NCBI GenBank assembly: GCA_964632435.1 | Contig: CAZWEJ010000001.1 | Location: forward strand, 1,052 to 65,051 | Length of the DNA stretch: 64,000 nt | Direction of reading: 5' to 3' | DNA from: an uncultured Candidatus Saccharimonadales bacterium | Lineage (GTDB): Bacteria > Patescibacteriota > Saccharimonadia > UBA4664 > SCTI01 | Shown: positions 11,859-59,856 of the stretch, piece after piece | How the letters are laid out: each line of letters opens with the position of its first letter | How positions within the stretch are numbered: position 1 is the stretch's first letter | The notes under the pieces: model-generated | The model's database searches: none | What the model saw: only the letters and a program-made list of their open reading frames with translations | What the model was told of the DNA's origin: nothing | Program-made: the position numbers and the translations under genes

Positions 11859-13085
11859 ATGAACGCACAATTTTTAGCAGCAATTAATCATATAGCCGAC
11901 GAGAAAGGGCTTCCAAGAGAGACCATCCTCCAAACCGTTGAGGCAGCTCTTGCTGCAGCTTATAAGAAGGACTACGGTGATAAAGATCAAGATGTTCGGG
12001 TTGAACTCAACGACACAACTGGTGACATGAAGGTGTTTGTCTCGAAAGAAGTAGTTGCCGATGATACGCCAGAAGAGGACTTCAACGAACTTCTACATGT
12101 CCGGCTAAAGGACGCTCTCAAAAAAGATAAAGAAGCCAAAGTAATCGAGCGCAAGGATGATGAGGACGAAGAGAATGTCGTTGGGCCCTACACAGTTGAG
12201 TATGAGGTAGATCCCGGCGAAGGATTTGGCCGAGTTGCTGCACAGACTGCAAAGCAGGTGATCATTCAGCGGCTCCGAGAAGCCGAGCGTGAGATCATCT
12301 TTAATGAGTACAGCGATAAGGTAGACACTCTTCTTAACGGAACAGTTCAGCGTGTTGATGGAAACATCGTATATGTTGATATTGGTAAAACCAACGGGGT
12401 GCTCTTTACTAACGAGCAGATTCCTGGCGAGCGCTATTACCCAGGCCAGCGGCTTAAGGTATACCTCGCGCGAGTTGAGCAAACCGCTCGTGGACCTCAG
12501 GTTGTAATCAGTCGGGCACATGCCAAGATGGTTGAGCGCCTCTTCGAGCTTGAAGTTCCAGAGATCGAAACCGGAACAGTAGAAATTAAGGGAGTATCCC
12601 GAGAAGCCGGGACTAGAAGCAAGGTTGCGGTTAAGTCAAACAGCGACAGCGTAGACCCAGTTGGCACCTTTGTTGGTGGCCGTGGAGCTCGCGTGCAGGC
12701 TGTAATGGGTGAGCTCGGCGAGGAGAAGATCGACATCATTCTTTGGAATGAGGACCCAGAAACTTACATTATCAACTCTTTGAGCCCAACTAAGGTTCTG
12801 AGCGTTGAACTTGATGAGGCTGAGCACAAAGCCGTTGTTAAGGTCCCGGAAGATCAGCTTTCGCTAGCTATTGGTAAGCAAGGCCAGAACGTACGTCTTG
12901 CCGCCAAGCTGACCGGCTGGAATATCGACATCGTTAGCGCCGACGAAAGCAAGGTTGAAGCAACTGCCGATGCCGCCGTCGAGCCAAAAGAAAAGCCAAA
13001 GAAGGTTGACCTAGAAGGTTCGCTGATCGCCGCGGTTGAGCAGCAATCAACAGAAGAGACTCAGGAAAAAGAGGAAGACAAATAA
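11859..13085 (+). CDS. nusA: Transcription termination/antitermination factor NusA
   Basis: N-terminal NusA domain, S1 and two KH domains (GKQGQNVRLAAKLTGWNIDI), acidic C-terminal tail. Confidence 0.95.
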   Translation: MNAQFLAAINHIADEKGLPRETILQTVEAALAAAYKKDYGDKDQDVRVELNDTTGDMKVFVSKEVVADDTPEEDFNELLHVRLKDALKKDKEAKVIERKDDEDEENVVGPYTVEYEVDPGEGFGRVAAQTAKQVIIQRLREAEREIIFNEYSDKVDTLLNGTVQRVDGNIVYVDIGKTNGVLFTNEQIPGERYYPGQRLKVYLARVEQTARGPQVVISRAHAKMVERLFELEVPEIETGTVEIKGVSREAGTRSKVAVKSNSDSVDPVGTFVGGRGARVQAVMGELGEEKIDIILWNEDPETYIINSLSPTKVLSVELDEAEHKAVVKVPEDQLSLAIGKQGQNVRLAAKLTGWNIDIVSADESKVEATADAAVEPKEKPKKVDLEGSLIAAVEQQSTEETQEKEEDK

Positions 13086-13117: not shown

Positions 13118-13150
13118 AGAATCCGCCACATTTAGGCGGATTCTTTGGTT
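13118..13150 (+). terminator. Rho-independent terminator after nusA
   Basis: agaatccgcc-acattt-ggcggattct stem followed by ttggtt. Confidence 0.65.
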
Positions 13151-13225
13151 GATAGCAGTCTAGCGGTGATAAAATAAGACTTATGCGTGGACGCCAGGAA
13201 GCTTCAGAAGTACCCGCAAAAAACT

Positions 13226-13252
13226 CTGGCACTCGGCATATTAGAGTGCTAA
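13226..13252 (+). promoter_or_regulatory. CIRCE-like inverted repeat (HrcA operator type) upstream of clpC
   Basis: CTGGCACTC-N9-GAGTGCTAA versus the CIRCE consensus TTAGCACTC-N9-GAGTGCTAA; it overlaps a TAATAT -10-like hexamer. Confidence 0.6.
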
Positions 13253-13320
13253 TATATGGCTAAACGGTAGGTCCAGTTCCAGTTTTCCTACCGAGGAATA
13301 AGGGGAGAAAGGAGCTAAAC

Positions 13321-15813
13321 ATGGCACTAGAGTTTGGACCACATTTTGATAGATTCACTGAAAATGCTAAGCAAAGTTTAGAGAATGCCGATCAAATCGC
13401 GACCCAGATGGCGTCAAGTTATATCGGCACTGAGCACATTCTGTTAGGCGTATTGCAACAGGAGGGTTCAATTGGATCCAGAATATTAAGGAATGCTGGA
13501 GTTACTCTCGACAAAGCGCAAATGGTTCTGAGCTTTTCGCCTAAAGTTATCTCTCATAATCACAAGGGGCTCAGCGAAGCTGCCAAGACCACTTTGACCC
13601 TTTCTTGGCGTATTGCTCGCGAGTTTGGTCAACCATACTCGGGCACCGAGCACATTCTTTTCGCTCTCTTAAGCCACAAAAGCGCTCGTTCTAATACATT
13701 ACTAAAAGAGATGCGGGTCGAGCCCTCGCTGGTTCGTTCGGAGCTGGAGAACTACTTAAGCAATCAACAATTCTTCCCAATGGAAGATGATGGCCGAACC
13801 TCTGGTGGAGGTACTGCCACAGCCAAGAAAACTAAGACTAAGACGCCAGCACTCGATAGCTTTGGTGTAGATCTTACTGCGAAAGCTCGCGAAGGATATC
13901 TAGACCCAGTGGTTGGGCGTGAGAACCAAATTGGCCGAGTAATCACTATTCTTAATCGCCGCTCTAAAAATAATCCAGTTCTTATTGGTGAGCCTGGGGT
14001 AGGTAAGACGGCAATTGTAGAAGGTCTTGCTCAAAGAATCGTTTCTGAAGAAGTGCCAGAAATGCTACAAAGTAAGCGTATTATCATGCTCGATCTCGCA
14101 AGCGTAATCGCTGGTACAAAATACCGAGGTGAGTTTGAAGAGCGCTTAAAGAAGCTTCTTGATGAAGCTAAGGCTAATCGCGAAGTAATTCTGTTTATTG
14201 ATGAGCTACATACAGTGGTTGGCGCAGGTGCTGCCGAAGGCGCTATTGATGCAGCCAATATTCTCAAGCCGGCACTAAGCCGAGGCGAAATTCAAGTTGT
14301 CGGCGCAACCACTCTAGATGAATATCGCAAACATATTGAGAAAGATTCGGCTCTTGAGAGAAGGTTCCAGCCAGTTCAGGTTCCGGAGGCAACCGCAGAG
14401 GAGACGGTTCAGGTTCTGCATGGTTTGCGCCCTCGATACGAGGAGCATCATCGGGTTGAAATTACAGATGAGGCAATTGAAAGCGCCGCAAAACTTGCTC
14501 ACAGGTATGTTGCCGATCGATTCCTGCCAGATAAGGCAATCGATCTTGTTGATGAGGCGGCTTCCTTGGTACGAATAAAGAGAGGCGCGACCAGTAAGCC
14601 GCTTCGCTCACTTCAAAGGCAGTTCAATGACATTCAGGCCCAGATTGAAGATGCGGTAAACGACCAAGACTTTGAGGGCGCTGCCCGACTCAAAACAAAG
14701 GCGAGTGTTCTGGAGCAAAAAATTGATGTACTCCGCGAAAAAGAGGGAGATAAAGAAAACCTCAGGATTGTGCCCGAGGATATCGCTCAAGTTATTAGCG
14801 TTATGACTGGCATTCCCGCAACTAGATTAATCGACAAAGAGATGCACAATCTAATGCAGCTAGAAGACCGACTTGGTAAGAGAATTATCGCTCAAAATGA
14901 AGCTGTGGCCGCAATTTCAAAAGCCATTCGTCGAAGCCGCACCGGAATAAGTGATAGTCGCCGGCCTATTGGATCATTCATTTTTCTTGGGCCAACGGGT
15001 GTAGGTAAGACAGAACTGGCTCGTGTATTAAGTGAAGAGATGTTCCACAGCCGCGATGCGATGATCAAAATCGATATGAGTGAGTTTATGGAGAAGCACA
15101 ATGTGGCAAGGCTTGTCGGCGCGCCCGCAGGTTATGTTGGTTATGATGATGGGGGCCAGCTGACAGAGCTTGTTAGAAGAAAGCCTTATAGCCTAATCCT
15201 CTTTGATGAGATTGAGAAAGCTCATCCGGATGTTTTCAATATGCTTTTGCAGATTCTTGAAGATGGGCAGCTCACAGATGCAAAAGGGCGCAAGATTGAT
15301 TTTCGCAATACAATTATTATTATGACCTCAAATGTGGGAGCAGAAACCATGTATAAGGAGGCTCAGCTCGGATTTCAGGCAGATACTCGAGAGGAAGAGA
15401 AGGAGCTTGAACAGCAGCATGAGCGTGTAAAAGGTCAGGTTATGGATTCGCTTAAGCGCACTTTTAGGCCAGAGTTCCTTAACCGTATTGACGACGTAAT
15501 TGTTTTCAAGCCGCTATCCAAACTGGATATTCGACAAATTCTTGACCTGCAGTTGAGTGAGCTCGCTGGAAGAATTGCCGAGCAGGGATTGAATCTGCGA
15601 GTTAGCTCATCAGCAAAAAACTTGCTTATCGAAAAAGGCTATAACGTCGATCAAGGTGCAAGGCCAATGAGAAGAGCAATTCAAGATTTGGTTGAAGACC
15701 CCCTTGCGATTGGTGTTTTGAAACATGAGTACAAAGAAGGTGACACTGTATCCATAACAGCAAAAGATAACGAGCTGGTGCTTAAAGCCTTATCGCCTCA
15801 CGCCAAAAGTTAA
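13321..15813 (+). CDS. clpC: ATP-dependent Clp protease ATP-binding subunit ClpC/ClpB-type (two AAA+ modules, Clp_N repeats)
   Basis: Two Clp N-terminal repeats, Walker A motifs GEPGVGKT and GPTGVGKT, a UVR-like linker and a ClpB_D2-small domain. Confidence 0.9.
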
Positions 15814-15867: not shown

Positions 15868-17199
15868 ATGGCTAAAGCGACAATCCAATTTGTTTGCCAG
15901 CAATGTGGCGCCACTCAGAGCAAGTGGTCAGGTAAATGCGATCAGTGTGGTCAGTGGAATTCGTTAGTTGAAACTACCGTCGCGCCAAGACGAGCTTCTA
16001 CAGGGGCGGTCGCTGCGAAACCTCAGAAGATATCAGAAGTAGAGACTAAAAAACTTCCTCGAATAGATTCTGGAATAGGCGAGGTGAATCAGGTTTTGGG
16101 GGGAGGGATTGTCCCAGGTTCAATTTCGCTTCTTTCAGGAGACCCCGGCATAGGAAAGTCAACGCTGGTTCTTCAAGTAGCCTCACAGATTGCTCAACAT
16201 GTGCCAGTTCTATACGTTAGTGGTGAGGAGTCCGCTAATCAGATCAAGATTCGCGCAGAGCGTCTTAAAATTAACTCAGACAACCTTGATCTCCTAACCG
16301 AGACTAATACGGATGTTGTGGCAGCAACGCTTGAAAATGGCGACTATAAGCTGGTAATTATTGACTCGATTCAAACTATGGCGGTTGAAGCCCTGACCGG
16401 GAGTCCCGGCTCGGTTGGGCAGATTACGGCGTCTTCTCAAATGCTACAGGCAGTTGCAAAACGTAAGCATGTGGCAATGATCATTATTGGTCACGTCACA
16501 AAAGAAGGAAATATTGCGGGGCCAAAGGTTTTAGAACATTTGGTTGATGTTGTTTTGTACCTTGAGGGTGATCGCTACGGAGCCTTTAAAGCCTTACGTG
16601 GCATCAAGAATCGCTTCGGCTCAACCAGCGAGGTCGGCATATTCGAGATGAAAGATAATGGCCTGAGTCCCATCTCTAACCCAAGTGAGGCCCTACTTGC
16701 AGAGCGGCAGGAAGCTCCGGGTAGTGTTGTTCTTGCCACAGTTGAGGGGACGAGGCCGATTCTGGTTGAAGTACAGGCGCTAGTCTCTAAATCGAGCTTT
16801 GGATACCCAAAACGTACTGCGTCGGGGTTTGATATAAACAGGCTTAATTTACTGGTCGCAGTCTTGCAGAAAAGAGCCGGTCTCAACTTGTCAGATCAGG
16901 ACATTTATGTTAATATTATAGGCGGTTTGAAGATCACCGAACCGGCCGCAGATCTGGCAATTATTTTGGCGATAGCCTCGGCTTTTAAAAATCAGCCGAC
17001 CGCCCATAATCTTATTTCGTTCGGAGAAGTTGGCCTAAGTGGTGAAATTCGATCTGTCTCTAATGTTGCCGGCCGTATCGCCGAAGCAAAAAAACTTGGA
17101 TTTAAATATGTGGTAGGGCCAAACAACCTCTCACAAGCACAAAACATTCAACGTGCAAAGAACATCAAGCAAGCGATCGAAGCAGCGTTAGGTTCTTAA
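15868..17199 (+). CDS. radA: DNA repair protein RadA/Sms
   Basis: N-terminal CxxC-x-CxxC zinc finger, a RecA-like ATPase domain with GDPGIGKST, and a Lon-protease-like C domain. Confidence 0.95.
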   Translation: MAKATIQFVCQQCGATQSKWSGKCDQCGQWNSLVETTVAPRRASTGAVAAKPQKISEVETKKLPRIDSGIGEVNQVLGGGIVPGSISLLSGDPGIGKSTLVLQVASQIAQHVPVLYVSGEESANQIKIRAERLKINSDNLDLLTETNTDVVAATLENGDYKLVIIDSIQTMAVEALTGSPGSVGQITASSQMLQAVAKRKHVAMIIIGHVTKEGNIAGPKVLEHLVDVVLYLEGDRYGAFKALRGIKNRFGSTSEVGIFEMKDNGLSPISNPSEALLAERQEAPGSVVLATVEGTRPILVEVQALVSKSSFGYPKRTASGFDINRLNLLVAVLQKRAGLNLSDQDIYVNIIGGLKITEPAADLAIILAIASAFKNQPTAHNLISFGEVGLSGEIRSVSNVAGRIAEAKKLGFKYVVGPNNLSQAQNIQRAKNIKQAIEAALGS

Positions 17200-26891: not shown

Positions 26892-28175
26892 ATGAAAGCT
26901 GAAATCACTAAAAAAACTGACACAGAAGTAACTCTGCTTATCACTGCCAGCGAGGCTGAGATCAAGCACTCATATGAGCACGCTATTGCTCATTATCGTC
27001 CGCGAGTAAAGGTTGCTGGGTTTCGCCCAGGTAAAGCCCCCGACAACATTGTTGTGCGAGAAATAGGTGACACAACAATCCAGACAGAAACGATTGAACA
27101 CACCATCAGTCACGCTTACTCGGATGCGGTTACTCAAGAGCAACTTCAGGTAATTGGTCAGCCAAAAATTGATATCAAAAAATGGGTACCATACTCAACT
27201 CTCGAATTCGAGGCAGTCACAGAGATTGTCCCCCCAGTTAAACTCCCAGATTACAAAAAGATCAAAAAGACTAAAAAGGAAGTTAGGGTTACCGACGAGC
27301 AGATCAATCGGATGGTCGAAGATCTACGCCGCCGAGTCGCAAAGCGAGTTCCGGCACTCCGACCTGCCCAAATGGAGGACGAGGTAAAGTTCGACTTTGA
27401 TGGTCGCCAGGATGGCGAGTCAGTTGAGGGTGCTTCAAGCAAAAACTTCACACTTAAGCTTGGTTCGGGACAGTTTATCCCCGGTTTCGAAGAGCAAATG
27501 GTTGGTCTGAATGTTGGTGATGAAAAAACTTTCACAGTTACTTTCCCAAATGATTATCACGAAAAATCGCTTGCTGGTAAGCCAGTCGATTTTACAGTTA
27601 AAATTCACGAGGTCACTTCTCTTGAGCTTCCAGAGACAGACGACAAGTTTGCTTCAGAGGTTGGGCCATTTAAGACATACAAGGACCTCCGAGCTGACAT
27701 TAAGGATCAGTTGACCGTTGAAGCCGAAGAGAACACCAAACGCGAGCTCGAGACCGAGCTACTTGATGAGATCGTTTCGAAGATGAAGACAACCGTTCCC
27801 GAACGATTGGTAGCTCAGCAGATTGAGCGCTTAAAAGCAGATCTTTCGCAGCGCCTTGCTCAAAGTGGCCTAAACATGGATCAATATCTTGAGATTCAAA
27901 AGAAAAGCCAGGAAGATTTGGAAAAAGAGCTTCGACCCGAAGCCGAGAAGCGTGTGAAACTCGCGTTGGTACTTAGTGAGGTAGCTAAGGAGGAAAAGCT
28001 GACCGTCACCGCCGACGAGCTTGACTCTGAATTAGAGGCATTGAGGCAGCAATACACTGATCCAGCGATGCAAGAAGAGCTTTCAAGCCCACATATTCGA
28101 GAAGATCTGTATAACCATCTTCTTTCGACAAAAACCATCAATAAACTGATAGAATACGCTACTCTAAAGAAGTAA
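26892..28175 (+). CDS. tig: Trigger factor
   Basis: MKAEITKKTDTEVTLLITASEAEIK...VAGFRPGKAP ribosome-binding domain and FKBP-type PPIase region. Confidence 0.9.
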   Translation: MKAEITKKTDTEVTLLITASEAEIKHSYEHAIAHYRPRVKVAGFRPGKAPDNIVVREIGDTTIQTETIEHTISHAYSDAVTQEQLQVIGQPKIDIKKWVPYSTLEFEAVTEIVPPVKLPDYKKIKKTKKEVRVTDEQINRMVEDLRRRVAKRVPALRPAQMEDEVKFDFDGRQDGESVEGASSKNFTLKLGSGQFIPGFEEQMVGLNVGDEKTFTVTFPNDYHEKSLAGKPVDFTVKIHEVTSLELPETDDKFASEVGPFKTYKDLRADIKDQLTVEAEENTKRELETELLDEIVSKMKTTVPERLVAQQIERLKADLSQRLAQSGLNMDQYLEIQKKSQEDLEKELRPEAEKRVKLALVLSEVAKEEKLTVTADELDSELEALRQQYTDPAMQEELSSPHIREDLYNHLLSTKTINKLIEYATLKK

Positions 28176-28176
28176 A

Positions 28177-28203
28177 TTAGCACTCTTGCATGTAGACTGC
28201 TAA
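28177..28203 (+). promoter_or_regulatory. CIRCE-like inverted repeat upstream of clpP
   Basis: TTAGCACTC-N9-GACTGCTAA, 17 of 18 matches to the CIRCE consensus with the canonical 9-nt spacer. Confidence 0.6.
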
Positions 28204-28259
28204 TTCGATAAAATACAAATACTGATTTTGTTCAAAACGTGACTTACAAAGGGGTGACT

Positions 28260-28865
28260 ATGACTAACCAGCGTAATCAAATACTTGTTCCAACCGTTCT
28301 CGAAAAAACCCATATGGGCGAGCGGGCCTACGATATTTATTCTCGTTTACTTAAGGACCGAATTATATTTGTCGGGACGGGAATTGACGATACTGTTGCG
28401 AATCTCGTTATCGCTCAGCTTCTCCATTTAGAGAACGAAGACCCCAAAAAAGATATTAAGATGTACATCAACTCTCCCGGCGGGTCGGTTTATGCTGGAA
28501 TGGCAATGATTGATACTATGAATTACATTAAGCCTGACGTATCGACGATCGCGATTGGGATGGCCGCCAGCATGGGCGCTGTAATGCTTGCAGCAGGCGC
28601 TAACGGTAAAAGATTTGCACTGCCCAATACAAAAATAATGATACATCAGGGCTCCGCGGGCTTTCAGGGTATGCCATCTGATATTGAAGTTACTGCTAGA
28701 GAAGTAATGGATATGCGCAAAAGATTAAGCGAAGAGCTCGCCGATGCGACAGGAAAACCCTATGATCAGATTATTAAGGACACCGACAGAGACTACTATA
28801 TGACCGCAAAAGAGGCCAAAGATTACGGCATAATTGACGGCGTAATTTCCCGTAACAACGTCTAA
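28260..28865 (+). CDS. clpP: ATP-dependent Clp protease proteolytic subunit
   Basis: Catalytic Ser (GMAASMGA) and His (MIHQ) contexts; RBS AAGGGG precedes the ATG at 28260. Confidence 0.95.
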
Positions 28866-58134: not shown

Positions 58135-58419
58135 CTCGACCTAAGACATTAATAAAATTAATAGCTTGGGTTGAGTGACAAAGTGAGTGAGATGCAGGTG
58201 GGTGAGGCACGCTAGATGCCTCACCCTCCCTTTCCGCTAGATACCTGCATTCGGAAAAGCTGCTCCATCGGTAAAGATGCGTAGTGAATCCGACCACGCT
58301 ACGCGCCCGATTGGCGGCACATAGGCCGCGCTAAAGCTGGAGAGCCTTGAAGTTTTACGGGGCAACCTCCGTGTCGCCCCGATTTGTCCCCCCCGTGCCA
58401 TTCTTGGCGCGAGCTTGTT

Positions 58420-59694
58420 TTACTTCTTGGTCTTCGAACGCCGACGAGCGCCCTTGGTTCCGGAGCGCTCACCCTTGGCGTTAACGCCCACGTTGCCGCG
58501 ACGGTTACGCCTCGGGTCGTCCGGACCCTGCGGGTTAGCCTTACCGATCCTGGGGCCGGCTCCAGGAATCTTCGGGGTGTTAGGCTCCTTCGACTTCTTG
58601 GCGGCCTTGGAGCCACCAGCCTTTCCGCGGTTGCGCTGATCGACCTGCTTGACCCGATTACTGCTTGCGCGAGCATCGCGGTCGAGCTTGCTCAGAACCA
58701 TCATGAGCTTGCTGTCCAGCTTGAGGTTCCCCCTCAGAATGCGCAGCGCATGGTGAATATCACGAACGTTCTGTCGGGTCTTCAGGATCTCCTCCGCCAG
58801 ATTCTCAATCGGCTGAGTCATCAGCATCATGAGGTACGAGCCGGGGTCGATCTCCTTGATCCCCTCGCTGAAGGCGTTGATCCGCCTCTGGCGAGTGGCT
58901 TCGATCTCCGAGATCATCTCGGAGATCTTCTGCTGAGCCGCCGCCCTCTTGCTGAGGCTCTGAAGAGCGATGATCATCGAGGCGTTGGGCCGAAGCTGCG
59001 CCTTCATGATCCGCACGGCGTTCAGCTCGCCGTAGACCGAGTTGCCCTCCTTCAGAAGCGTCTCGATGAGCTTATCGAGAGGCTCATTGAAGATCCGATG
59101 GAGGTACGTGCCCTCATCGATCAGATGGAGGTCATCCATGAACTCCTCCCGAAGGGTATCGATGCGACGCTGGAGGGCGGCCTTCTCGGACTCAGCCTTG
59201 GTGGTACCCTCATCGCACAGGCGCTTCAGCGTCTGCATGAAGTCGCTCTCATCCTCGAGCTGCTTCATAACCCCCAACATCGCTTCGGTGACCGTAATGC
59301 CACGCCTTCTGGCGTCGTACGTTGCGGTCTGCATGAGGGGGAAGTGGATCAGGTGGTAGAGCCGGGTGTCCTGCTTGATCAGACTCACGCCGTTGCCGTA
59401 CTTGGCAATCGCGTCCGTCTTGAGACGCTCGGCTTTCGCCGAGACCTCGTTGAGATCAACGCTGTCGCCCTCGACGTAGCCGGTCGAGAGATCCTCGACG
59501 CGGTGACGCCTGGGAGCGCTACCAGTAGTCGAGCGCTTGGGGCGACTCTTCCGCCCCTTCTGCCTGCGAGGCCGACGCGACCTGATCGCCTGCCCGAAAG
59601 CAGACATCAGTTCGTCGGTTGTCGCGACCCGATCGTCGGCCGGGGCCGGATCGGAGGTCTCCCCCTGGGGATTGACCTGGGGCGAAATCGCCAT
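58420..59694 (-). CDS. GC-rich foreign-looking gene: 424-aa protein with an internally duplicated helical domain and strongly basic Arg/Lys-rich N- and C-terminal tails (candidate nucleic-acid-binding protein)
   Basis: Minus-strand ORF with protein-like composition, whereas the plus-strand antisense ORF is L/R/G-rich. The start at 59694 is preferred because of the RBS GAGGTGA 4 nt upstream. Internal repeat: LIDEGTYLHRIFNEPLDKLIETLLK versus EIDPGSYLMMLMTQPIENLAEEILK. Local GC is about 60% against about 46% for the flanks. Confidence 0.55.
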   Translation of the reverse strand: MAISPQVNPQGETSDPAPADDRVATTDELMSAFGQAIRSRRPRRQKGRKSRPKRSTTGSAPRRHRVEDLSTGYVEGDSVDLNEVSAKAERLKTDAIAKYGNGVSLIKQDTRLYHLIHFPLMQTATYDARRRGITVTEAMLGVMKQLEDESDFMQTLKRLCDEGTTKAESEKAALQRRIDTLREEFMDDLHLIDEGTYLHRIFNEPLDKLIETLLKEGNSVYGELNAVRIMKAQLRPNASMIIALQSLSKRAAAQQKISEMISEIEATRQRRINAFSEGIKEIDPGSYLMMLMTQPIENLAEEILKTRQNVRDIHHALRILRGNLKLDSKLMMVLSKLDRDARASSNRVKQVDQRNRGKAGGSKAAKKSKEPNTPKIPGAGPRIGKANPQGPDDPRRNRRGNVGVNAKGERSGTKGARRRSKTKK

Positions 59695-59856
59695 GTTATC
59701 ACCTCGTTTGGGAAGAGCCATAACTTCTGACTCACTTTGTCAAAAAAACATCCGGATTGTTGCACCCGGAAGTTGCGCCAATATTAACATAACTATCTTT
59801 ATCTGTCAACCACCTTACGTCTGGCCACTAAAACATAACCGCTATATAATAATTTT

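Follow-up and report, generated by a model that had tools for sequence, protein, structure and literature searches.

CIRCE operators upstream of clpC and clpP suggest that Clp proteolysis belongs to the HrcA heat-shock regulon of a Saccharimonadales bacterium

The inverted repeat CIRCE (controlling inverted repeat of chaperone expression) and its repressor HrcA classically control the groESL operon and dnaK, and Clp genes are usually under the control of CtsR or ClgR. In a stretch of 64,000 nucleotides (nt) from an uncultured Candidatus Saccharimonadales bacterium, which we call the window, CIRCE-like repeats are found in front of two clp genes: one is located between nusA and clpC, the gene for an unfoldase, and the other one between tig and clpP, the gene for the peptidase. 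The two loci are composed of the following features:

11859 to 13085, plus strand: nusA, the 5' neighbour of clpC (NCBIfam TIGR01953, E = 1.6e-113)
13226 to 13252, no strand assigned: CIRCE before clpC, CTGGCACTC-GGCATATTA-GAGTGCTAA, 16 of 18 consensus positions (2 mismatches)
13321 to 15813, plus strand: gene for a ClpC-type AAA+ unfoldase of 830 amino acids (Pfam: Clp_N twice, AAA, AAA_lid_9, UVR, AAA_2, ClpB_D2-small)
26892 to 28175, plus strand: tig, encoding trigger factor, the 5' neighbour of clpP (TIGR00115, E = 2e-121; a gene call of 427 amino acids in the public contig L001)
28177 to 28203, no strand assigned: CIRCE before clpP, TTAGCACTC-TTGCATGTA-GACTGCTAA, 17 of 18 consensus positions (1 mismatch)
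28260 to 28865, plus strand: clpP, 201 amino acids (NF001368, E = 3e-92), with the ribosome-binding site AAAGGGG upstream

The whole window was searched with the CIRCE consensus TTAGCACTC-N9-GAGTGCTAA, allowing up to three mismatches, and this search returned exactly two matches, the repeats at 13226-13252 and 28177-28203. By chance, 0.02 sites would be expected as judged from 100 dinucleotide-preserving shuffles, none of which reached two or more sites. The original prediction, made from the DNA sequence without database searches, had proposed two near-consensus CIRCE sites with an exact 9-nt spacer and 16 to 17 of the 18 consensus positions. The coordinates and sequences of both repeats are as it gave them, the spacer measures exactly 9 nt at clpC and at clpP, the agreement with the consensus is 16/18 and 17/18, and the names given to the downstream genes are borne out by domain and family matches. 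Both operators are intergenic, with a distance to the start codon of 68 nt for clpC and 56 nt for clpP, both overlap promoter-like boxes, and both remain inside the limit of two mutations that applies to functional sites of the Mollicutes (PMC5138195). The prediction had also placed each repeat between an upstream terminator and the ribosome-binding site. This part is correct only for clpC, where a hairpin follows nusA:

13119 to 13148, plus strand: terminator-like hairpin (13119-13146) after nusA, GAATCCGCC-N7-GGCGGATTC and then TTTGG (RNA fold -26.9 kcal/mol, z = -5.28 versus shuffles)

A simple terminator scan did not flag this hairpin because its T-run is short. At clpP there is no terminator after tig, and the operator begins 1 nt past the tig stop codon (28173-28175).

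Based on its domains and a ClpP-docking-type LGF loop (residues 683-685, in D2), the product of 13321-15813 can be regarded as a ClpC-type Hsp100 partner of ClpP. The UVR match is weak (E = 4e-4), the protein scores below the equivalog cut-offs for ClpB and ClpA, and homologues with 70-97% identity carry the name ClpC and the labels Saccharimonadia or Saccharimonadales. The exact ClpP protein of the window is present on 23 public metagenomic contigs. The synteny of nusA and clpC is kept across the Saccharimonadales and Southlakia: the two genes are adjacent in the relatives L014, L016, L018, L020, L021 and L256 as well as in Southlakia (SEML1_0513/0512).

Relatives of graded distance carry the same operators at orthologous positions. 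A comparison of the tyrosyl-tRNA synthetase (TyrRS) in species-representative genomes assigns the window to the Saccharimonadales (Saccharibacteria/TM7, candidate phyla radiation): CAYRGI01, the GTDB representative of the species, is 92-97% identical to the window organism at the protein level, the loci L014-L016 are 65-73% identical, and L018 and L021 are 51% identical. The clpC operator is found at the orthologous position in L020, L014, L015 and L016. If the five clpC sites are aligned on the repeat, variation in the arms is confined to positions 1 and 3, and all nine spacer positions vary, with three to four different bases per position when L256 is included with the five species. The clpP operator is identical in ten other contigs with the same ClpP, and it has orthologues in L014 and L016 (one mismatch each) and in L015, where the site is degenerate (four mismatches) with its core kept. 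Across the clpP sites of six loci, the arm cores are kept, but one core position (GAGTGC/GACTGC) and the outer arm bases vary. Perfect sites occur in three further loci: in L256, CIRCE lies in the gap between nusA and a clpC whose product is 52% identical; in L188, the order is penicillin-binding protein gene-tyrS-recG-rsmD-tig-CIRCE-clpP-rpoB, with a ClpP that is 52% identical; and in L225, the order is CIRCE-clpP-rpoB. Such a pattern of conserved arms around a free spacer would be expected for the footprint of a protein operator, and not for an RNA hairpin or neutral DNA.

At both genes, the operators are closely associated with candidate promoter elements. The boxes were assigned by manual reading and conservation, rather than by the score of a generic sigma-70 scan:

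13149 to 13175, plus strand: candidate clpC promoter P1, TTGATA, 15 nt, extended -10 box TGaTAAAAT (-10 at 13170-13175)
13250 to 13255, plus strand: putative -10-like box TAATAT of clpC promoter P2, in which the final 3 nt of the right arm are joined to ATA(T)
28186 to 28214, plus strand: clpP promoter under the operator, -35-like box TTGCAT (28186-28191) in the CIRCE spacer, 17 nt, -10 box TAAAAT (28209-28214)

At clpP, the sole recognisable promoter sits within the operator, with 5 nt between the right arm and the -10 box. All six clpP sites share this layout: Their spacers start with a -35-like hexamer (TTGCAT, TTGCAC, TAGACA or TTGACA), and a -10 box (TAAAAT, TATGAT, TATCAT or TATACT) is located 5-6 nt past the right arm, which results in a promoter spacer of 17-18 nt. 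Moreover, the -35 box, of the form T(T/A)G(A/C)CA, is placed in the spacer at the CIRCEs of nusA, hrcA, dnaK and dnaJ of the relatives, and 5-7 nt lie between the right arm and the -10 box. Bound to the clpP operator, a repressor would sit on the -35 box as well as on the promoter spacer, and the promoter would thus be occluded. This -35-enclosing architecture is lineage-specific. In an unconstrained set of 120 perfect CIRCEs from a viral collection (98 distinct spacers among the matches listed, mostly before groES), a spacer start with TTG occurs in 4 of 98 cases in either orientation, and this corresponds to chance.

The clpC operator is built in a different way: Its spacer is unconstrained, unlike the clpP spacer that holds the -35 box. 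An extended -10 box (TGnTAnAAT or TATACT) is present 5' of the clpC CIRCE in all five close relatives at a distance of 45-75 nt from the operator, and in the window, the operator lies about 50 nt 3' of this conserved box. In addition, the sequence GAGTGCTAATAT(A/G)G is kept in all five close relatives, i. e. ATAT(A/G)G comes directly after the right arm in each case, and the left arm (CTGGCA/TTGGCA) offers a weak -35 box 18 nt 5' of TAATAT. P2 could be a second promoter wholly beneath the operator. The clpC operator is located in the leader of P1, or it covers a second promoter, or both.

CIRCE is not confined to the clp genes. A metagenome scan for CIRCEs whose arms are perfect and whose spacer contains TTGACA gave at least 120 sites. 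Among the matches listed, 109 sites were followed by a sufficient length of sequence, and about 103 of these precede proteostasis genes. The targets among the matches listed are hrcA-like genes (about 52), dnaK (33), Clp ATPase genes (8, plus one ClpB-like), hsp20 (4), clpP (2), dnaJ (1) and groES (1), and about 40 of the 51 HrcA-like open reading frames directly 3' of operators, again among the matches listed, are 217-249 amino acids long. In Saccharibacteria-type loci, CIRCE precedes hrcA-grpE, dnaK and dnaJ. At hrcA, operator and promoter overlap, and the hrcA mRNA is probably leaderless since the ATG follows 6 nt past TATAAT. At dnaK, two tandem CIRCEs are separated by 9 nt (L278:11513-11575; also in L283, L289 and L296), the first one enclosing the -35 box and the second one lying just past the -10 box. 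The GACTGC variant of the right arm that is present at the clpP site of the window also occurs at the operator of hrcA itself, which argues that it is tolerated. It had been proposed that CIRCE stands in front of clp genes rather than groEL and dnaK. The first half of this statement is correct, the second half has to be changed to "in addition to" as dnaK, dnaJ and hrcA carry CIRCE in relatives, too: The clp genes have been added to the HrcA regulon, and the chaperones have not been replaced.

Several of the genes under CIRCE control in these lineages seem to be leaderless. The start codon is found 6-7 nt after the post-operator -10 box at L278:8514-8562, L283:8054-8102, L188:11213-11256 and L256:3305-3351 (minus strand), and among the matches listed most hrcA start codons are located 18-21 nt after CIRCE.

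A genome devoid of hrcA, with CIRCE-like sequences at random frequency, had been named as the outcome that would speak against the proposal; at the level of the lineage the opposite was found, since Saccharibacteria encode HrcA. In Southlakia epibionticum, a member of the Saccharimonadales, SEML1_0720 (729 bp) is annotated as "transcriptional regulator", with assignments to KEGG K03705 and to PF01628 and PF03444, and its ECOD matches are to the 1stz domains A1 and A3 only (PMC10633639). The gene order is hrcA-grpE-dnaK, and the hrcA family is core and Patescibacteria-enriched (PMC10633639). In the transposon sequencing data for this organism, hrcA, grpE and hsp20 (SEML1_0020) score as essential at each of the three time points, dnaK and groES (SEML1_0799)/groEL score as essential at the later ones, and clpC (SEML1_0512, beside nusA, 0513) and clpP (SEML1_0493, near tig, 0495) are non-essential (PMC10633639). 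The essentiality of the repressor HrcA in Southlakia suggests that the derepressed regulon is harmful.

In the metagenomic loci, an HrcA protein of 233 amino acids that matches both HrcA Pfam domains is encoded in L218 (55-756) and in L278-L303 (e. g. L278:8560-9261). In L218, hrcA is followed by grpE and, further on, by dnaK behind a CIRCE. The homologues of the L218 protein are 80-88% identical, form more than 120 clusters and are encoded on contigs of up to 0.7-1.2 Mb; the loci of this type share the gmk-hrcA-grpE synteny of Southlakia, and one cluster mate is labelled Candidatus Saccharibacteria. The saccharibacterial HrcA proteins have 233-242 amino acids and retain the winged helix-turn-helix (SSATIR, HTSAGRIPT) and the C-terminal domain. 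They are devoid of about 100 residues that are found in the HrcA proteins of T. maritima, B. subtilis and actinobacteria, and we take this stretch to be the dimerising domain that is inserted in the structure of the T. maritima protein. Moreover, the short protein reads SSATIRAEM where the canonical one reads SSATIRNEM/NDM. The protein of the lineage does not have the canonical three-domain architecture of about 340 amino acids; it is still HrcA according to Pfam and KEGG. In an exhaustive search with the short HrcA, many 50%-identity clusters of 228-260 amino acids match from end to end (P0121-P0240), and canonical HrcA proteins of 340-350 amino acids match the query in two stretches. With B. 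subtilis HrcA as the query, the protein database returned Bacillaceae only, and a scan of viral contigs with the HrcA alignment identified four canonical-length HrcA genes and no short type of the candidate phyla radiation (CPR). Two sets of candidates for the hrcA gene of the window organism were rejected. L218 comes from a sample in which the window organism is present at a similar coverage, but its GC content is 41% as compared to 47% and its tetranucleotide correlation is 0.70 as compared to more than 0.9; judged from these differences, L218 is another Saccharibacterium. P0122, P0123 and P0166 come from other organisms and samples.

The conservation of orthologous sites, the presence of HrcA in the lineage and the CIRCEs at hrcA, dnaK and dnaJ support the idea that Clp proteolysis has been wired into the HrcA/CIRCE regulon. 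Based on these comparisons of sequences, we consider it likely that both repeats are genuine CIRCE operators and that, in this Saccharimonadales bacterium, ClpC and ClpP belong to the heat-shock regulon of HrcA. We infer that HrcA binds the clp operators, that its activity there depends on GroEL, and that the two genes are heat-induced. In the absence of stress, an HrcA dimer would bind to each of the clpC and clpP operators, and by analogy with Bacillus, it would be kept active by GroEL. At clpP, the bound HrcA would span the -35 box and end 5 nt before the -10 box, thereby excluding RNA polymerase. At clpC, HrcA might serve as a roadblock and/or an occluder, downstream of the extended -10 box and over the possible second promoter. 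If unfolded proteins build up, HrcA would lose its activity, and clpC (with radA) and clpP would be derepressed concurrently with hrcA-grpE, dnaK and dnaJ, and with hsp20, which is preceded by CIRCE in the metagenome sample.

Several observations weigh against the membership of the two clp genes in an HrcA regulon. A search for the hrcA gene in the window, in 10 kb of flanking sequence on either side (L026-L033) and in the TyrRS-related loci L011-L025 did not detect it. Its presence in the genome of the window organism is deduced from the core status in the lineage, not observed. The HrcA-bearing loci have GC contents of 36-47% and a tetranucleotide correlation with the window of at most 0.78, as compared to 0.91-0.97 for the contigs of the organism itself, and a comparison of the HrcA and ClpC match lists did not reveal any contig with both HrcA and a close ClpC homologue. 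The operators themselves are not perfect either: Both mismatches of the clpC site affect the left arm, this operator is located well 3' of the best promoter candidate, and an internal G>C change in the right arm breaks the palindrome of the clpP site. A generic sigma-70 consensus scan scores nothing at either CIRCE. In L018 and L021, CIRCE is found 5' of nusA and not of clpC, clpC follows 140 nt after nusA without an operator of its own, and the gap between tig and clpP is only 28 nt long and has no CIRCE; the linkage of CIRCE to clp genes is thus not universal in the Saccharimonadales. Finally, the co-culture transcriptome of TM7x shows that groES/EL, dnaK, dnaJ and grpE fall together and that a ClpB-annotated ATPase and clpP rise slightly (10.1101/2022.03.25.485537), and this does not look like a strict co-regulation of clp and chaperone genes in that species. 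Judged from TM7x expression, the membership in the regulon may differ between families, and the arrangement in L018 and L021 suggests the same. The main residual doubt concerns how strongly HrcA controls clpC and clpP. As for the surroundings, groES/EL and dnaK were likewise not found in the window, the 10-kb flanks and the loci L011-L025, and the terminator scan, too, scored nothing at either CIRCE.

This doubt can be put as an explanation of its own: The repeats could be true CIRCEs that are relics or weak modulators, with clpC and clpP mainly transcribed from HrcA-independent promoters such as the extended -10 promoter before clpC. The distance of about 50 nt between this conserved box and the clpC operator, the imperfect arms at both sites, the clpP site of L015 with its four mismatches, the lack of sites directly at clpC and clpP in L018 and L021, and the clp transcripts of TM7x that do not track the chaperone genes would all agree with it. 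We regard it nevertheless as unlikely: the arms are kept while spacers and flanks diverge across genomes with TyrRS proteins that are 65-73% identical, perfect sites are present in far more distant syntenic relatives, the only recognisable clpP promoter lies in the operator, and relics would exceed the two-mismatch limit of functional sites (PMC5138195). It is very improbable that the repeats are not protein operators but act as RNA, either by terminating or attenuating the transcription of nusA and tig or by forming stabilising hairpins. Each repeat can indeed fold into a 9-bp stem (-11.9 and -9.5 kcal/mol, z = -2.6 and -2.1), and the clpP repeat starts 1 nt past the tig stop codon. However, there is no T-run behind either stem, the terminator that nusA already possesses is much stronger, and the stem of the clpP site in the window contains an uncompensated mismatch. 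Moreover, instead of compensatory changes, the same consensus arms are found at the unrelated genes clpC, clpP, hrcA, dnaK, dnaJ and hsp20.

A regulator other than HrcA that recognises a CIRCE-like palindrome has a similarly small probability. The hrcA gene was not found in the 64 kb and the 20 kb of flanks that represent this genome here, and the HrcA of the lineage is atypical, being short, devoid of the inserted domain and having SSATIRAEM instead of SSATIRNEM/NDM. Yet the short protein matches both HrcA Pfam domains and KEGG K03705, CIRCE precedes the short hrcA in every locus examined, and the short form accounts for about 40 of the 51 HrcA-like genes behind operators among the matches listed. 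No family other than HrcA is known to bind the CIRCE motif. Chance palindromes without function deserve hardly any credence: although there are only two sites and both are imperfect, 0.02 sites are expected, no shuffle out of 100 had two or more, both sites are located 5' of functionally linked genes and are kept in many genomes. The shuffles and the conservation effectively refute this explanation. The control of clpC and clpP by CtsR was considered and rejected. A search of the window for the CtsR box RGTCAAA-NAN-RGTCAAA with up to three mismatches found seven boxes versus eight expected, and none of them near 13.2 kb or 28.2 kb. The gene directly 5' of clpC is nusA and not ctsR-mcsA-mcsB, and ctsR was not found in the window or the loci L001-L033 in a tblastn search with an approximate B. 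subtilis CtsR query.

The gene downstream of clpC is likely to share its expression:

15868 to 17199, plus strand: radA (TIGR00416, E = 4e-169), 54 nt 3' of clpC

The gene order clpC-radA-PIN/TRAM is kept in relatives, and radA is probably co-transcribed with clpC. Some further observations were made on genes and operators of this type. A second, divergent ClpP paralogue of 198 amino acids (Pfam E = 5e-20) is encoded at L278:16947-17543, 62 nt 3' of the CIRCE-controlled dnaJ and without an operator of its own. At the nusA CIRCE of L018 (374-513) and L021 (390-529), the operator with its embedded TTGACA is followed by a hairpin and a T-run before the start of nusA, an arrangement that looks like a leader or attenuator. 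At least 120 contigs of IMG/VR (L034-L153) hold a perfect 27-nt CIRCE, most of them directly 5' of groES-groEL, one 5' of hrcA and one (L101) directly 5' of a Clp ATPase gene. Flanking host DNA, bacterial fragments that were misclassified, or chaperonin genes borne by phages could account for these contigs. In the GC-rich loci L251 and L271, and also in L210 and L272 that are GC-rich just 3' of the site, a perfect TTGACA CIRCE precedes a small Cys-rich open reading frame, the putative product of which, read by eye, resembles a zinc-ribbon protein and not a chaperone. Elsewhere in the window, open reading frames of 448 amino acids (58384-59730, plus strand) and 433 amino acids (58420-59721, minus strand) overlap nearly completely on opposite strands. 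Neither of the two has a convincing Pfam match, and the public gene calls for the region conflict (minus strand in L030, plus strand in L031). The minus strand appears to encode a genuine protein that is basic and helical, and the reading frame of the plus strand looks like its Leu/Arg-rich shadow.

The control of proteases by HrcA is already known from the Mollicutes and S. salivarius, and what is new is the lineage and the targets of a known mechanism: a CPR lineage, ClpC and ClpP as targets apparently without CtsR, an operator that is embedded in the promoter, and a short HrcA. In the literature searched, we found no relevant report on HrcA in Saccharibacteria, Patescibacteria or the CPR, and nothing that describes the regulation of heat shock or proteostasis in CPR/Patescibacteria. 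For specialists, this is the expected kind of regulon expansion, not a new mechanism. The short CPR-type HrcA with its promoter-embedded operators and its broad proteostasis regulon is a more novel lead than the clp sites. CPR/Patescibacteria have very few transcription factors, and therefore, a confidently assignable pair of regulator and operator with a predictable regulon is a rare handle. It is tempting to speculate, though we would put the chances at slightly less than even, that in Saccharibacteria and apparently in many CPR/Patescibacteria a truncated HrcA without the inserted domain is the single master repressor of nearly the whole proteostasis network (hrcA-grpE, dnaK, dnaJ, hsp20, ClpC-type unfoldases and ClpP), with operators that double as promoters (their spacer enclosing the -35 box, and their right arm being separated from the -10 box by 5-7 nt) and with mRNAs that are often leaderless. 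If this were true, the essentiality of hrcA in Southlakia would reflect toxic runaway expression of ClpCP and the chaperones. Saccharibacteria such as the naturally competent Southlakia are genetically tractable, and the prediction is thus directly testable.

The comparison with known systems underlines both the shared logic and the differences. As in the class I system of Bacillus subtilis, the operator has the consensus TTAGCACTC-N9-GAGTGCTAA with an exact 9-nt spacer (the consensus is quoted in PMC3842655), hrcA of the lineage heads a grpE-containing operon behind its own operator, and dnaK and dnaJ are targets. In contrast to Bacillus, where CtsR controls clpC and clpP and the HrcA regulon is limited to the operons dnaK and groE (PMC3842655), clpC and clpP carry CIRCE here. 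Moreover, the HrcA of the lineage has about 233 amino acids and lacks the inserted domain of about 100 residues, many operators enclose a -35 box, and several genes appear leaderless, unlike in Bacillus. The class III regulon of the Firmicutes that is controlled by CtsR (ctsR-mcsA-mcsB-clpC, clpP, clpE) has the targets clpC and clpP and the order clpC-radA-PIN/TRAM in common with the window, but here the operator is different, heptad repeats do not exceed chance, and clpC follows nusA. Clp genes behind an HrcA-regulated CIRCE are known: clpP of S. salivarius is under the dual control of CtsR and HrcA (Chastanet and Msadek, as cited in PMC3842655), and clpL of L. gasseri is under the control of HrcA (as cited in PMC3192767). 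The present case differs from S. salivarius in that there is no sign of CtsR and that both the unfoldase and the peptidase gene carry the operator.

The closest analogue of the wiring of clp genes to CIRCE is the HrcA regulon of the Mollicutes. In M. pneumoniae, the targets of HrcA are dnaK, dnaJ, groESL, clpB, lon, pepA and pip, and a CIRCE is located between tig and lon (PMC7737663), an arrangement that is paralleled by tig-CIRCE-clpP in the window. In Spiroplasma and M. gallisepticum, CIRCE is found at clpB and lon and in tandem at dnaK, and functional sites carry up to two mutations (PMC5138195); the tandem dnaK operators of the Saccharibacteria resemble the double CIRCEs of Spiroplasma. 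No short HrcA is reported for Mollicutes in the papers retrieved, which were not checked specifically for this point. ClpP and ClpC are absent from the Mollicutes, in which Lon and ClpB are the protease targets, and the regulation has been demonstrated experimentally there, in contrast to the Saccharibacteria. Both are genome-reduced lineages, and in the Mollicutes, HrcA is the main stress regulator with a regulon that reaches proteases and AAA+ proteins. Thus, the logic seems to be convergent: In shrinking genomes, HrcA appears to take over protease genes that are elsewhere controlled by CtsR or sigma-32, and in this tiny-genome Saccharibacterium, the heat-shock regulon of the chaperones has probably come to include protein degradation, as is known from mycoplasmas.

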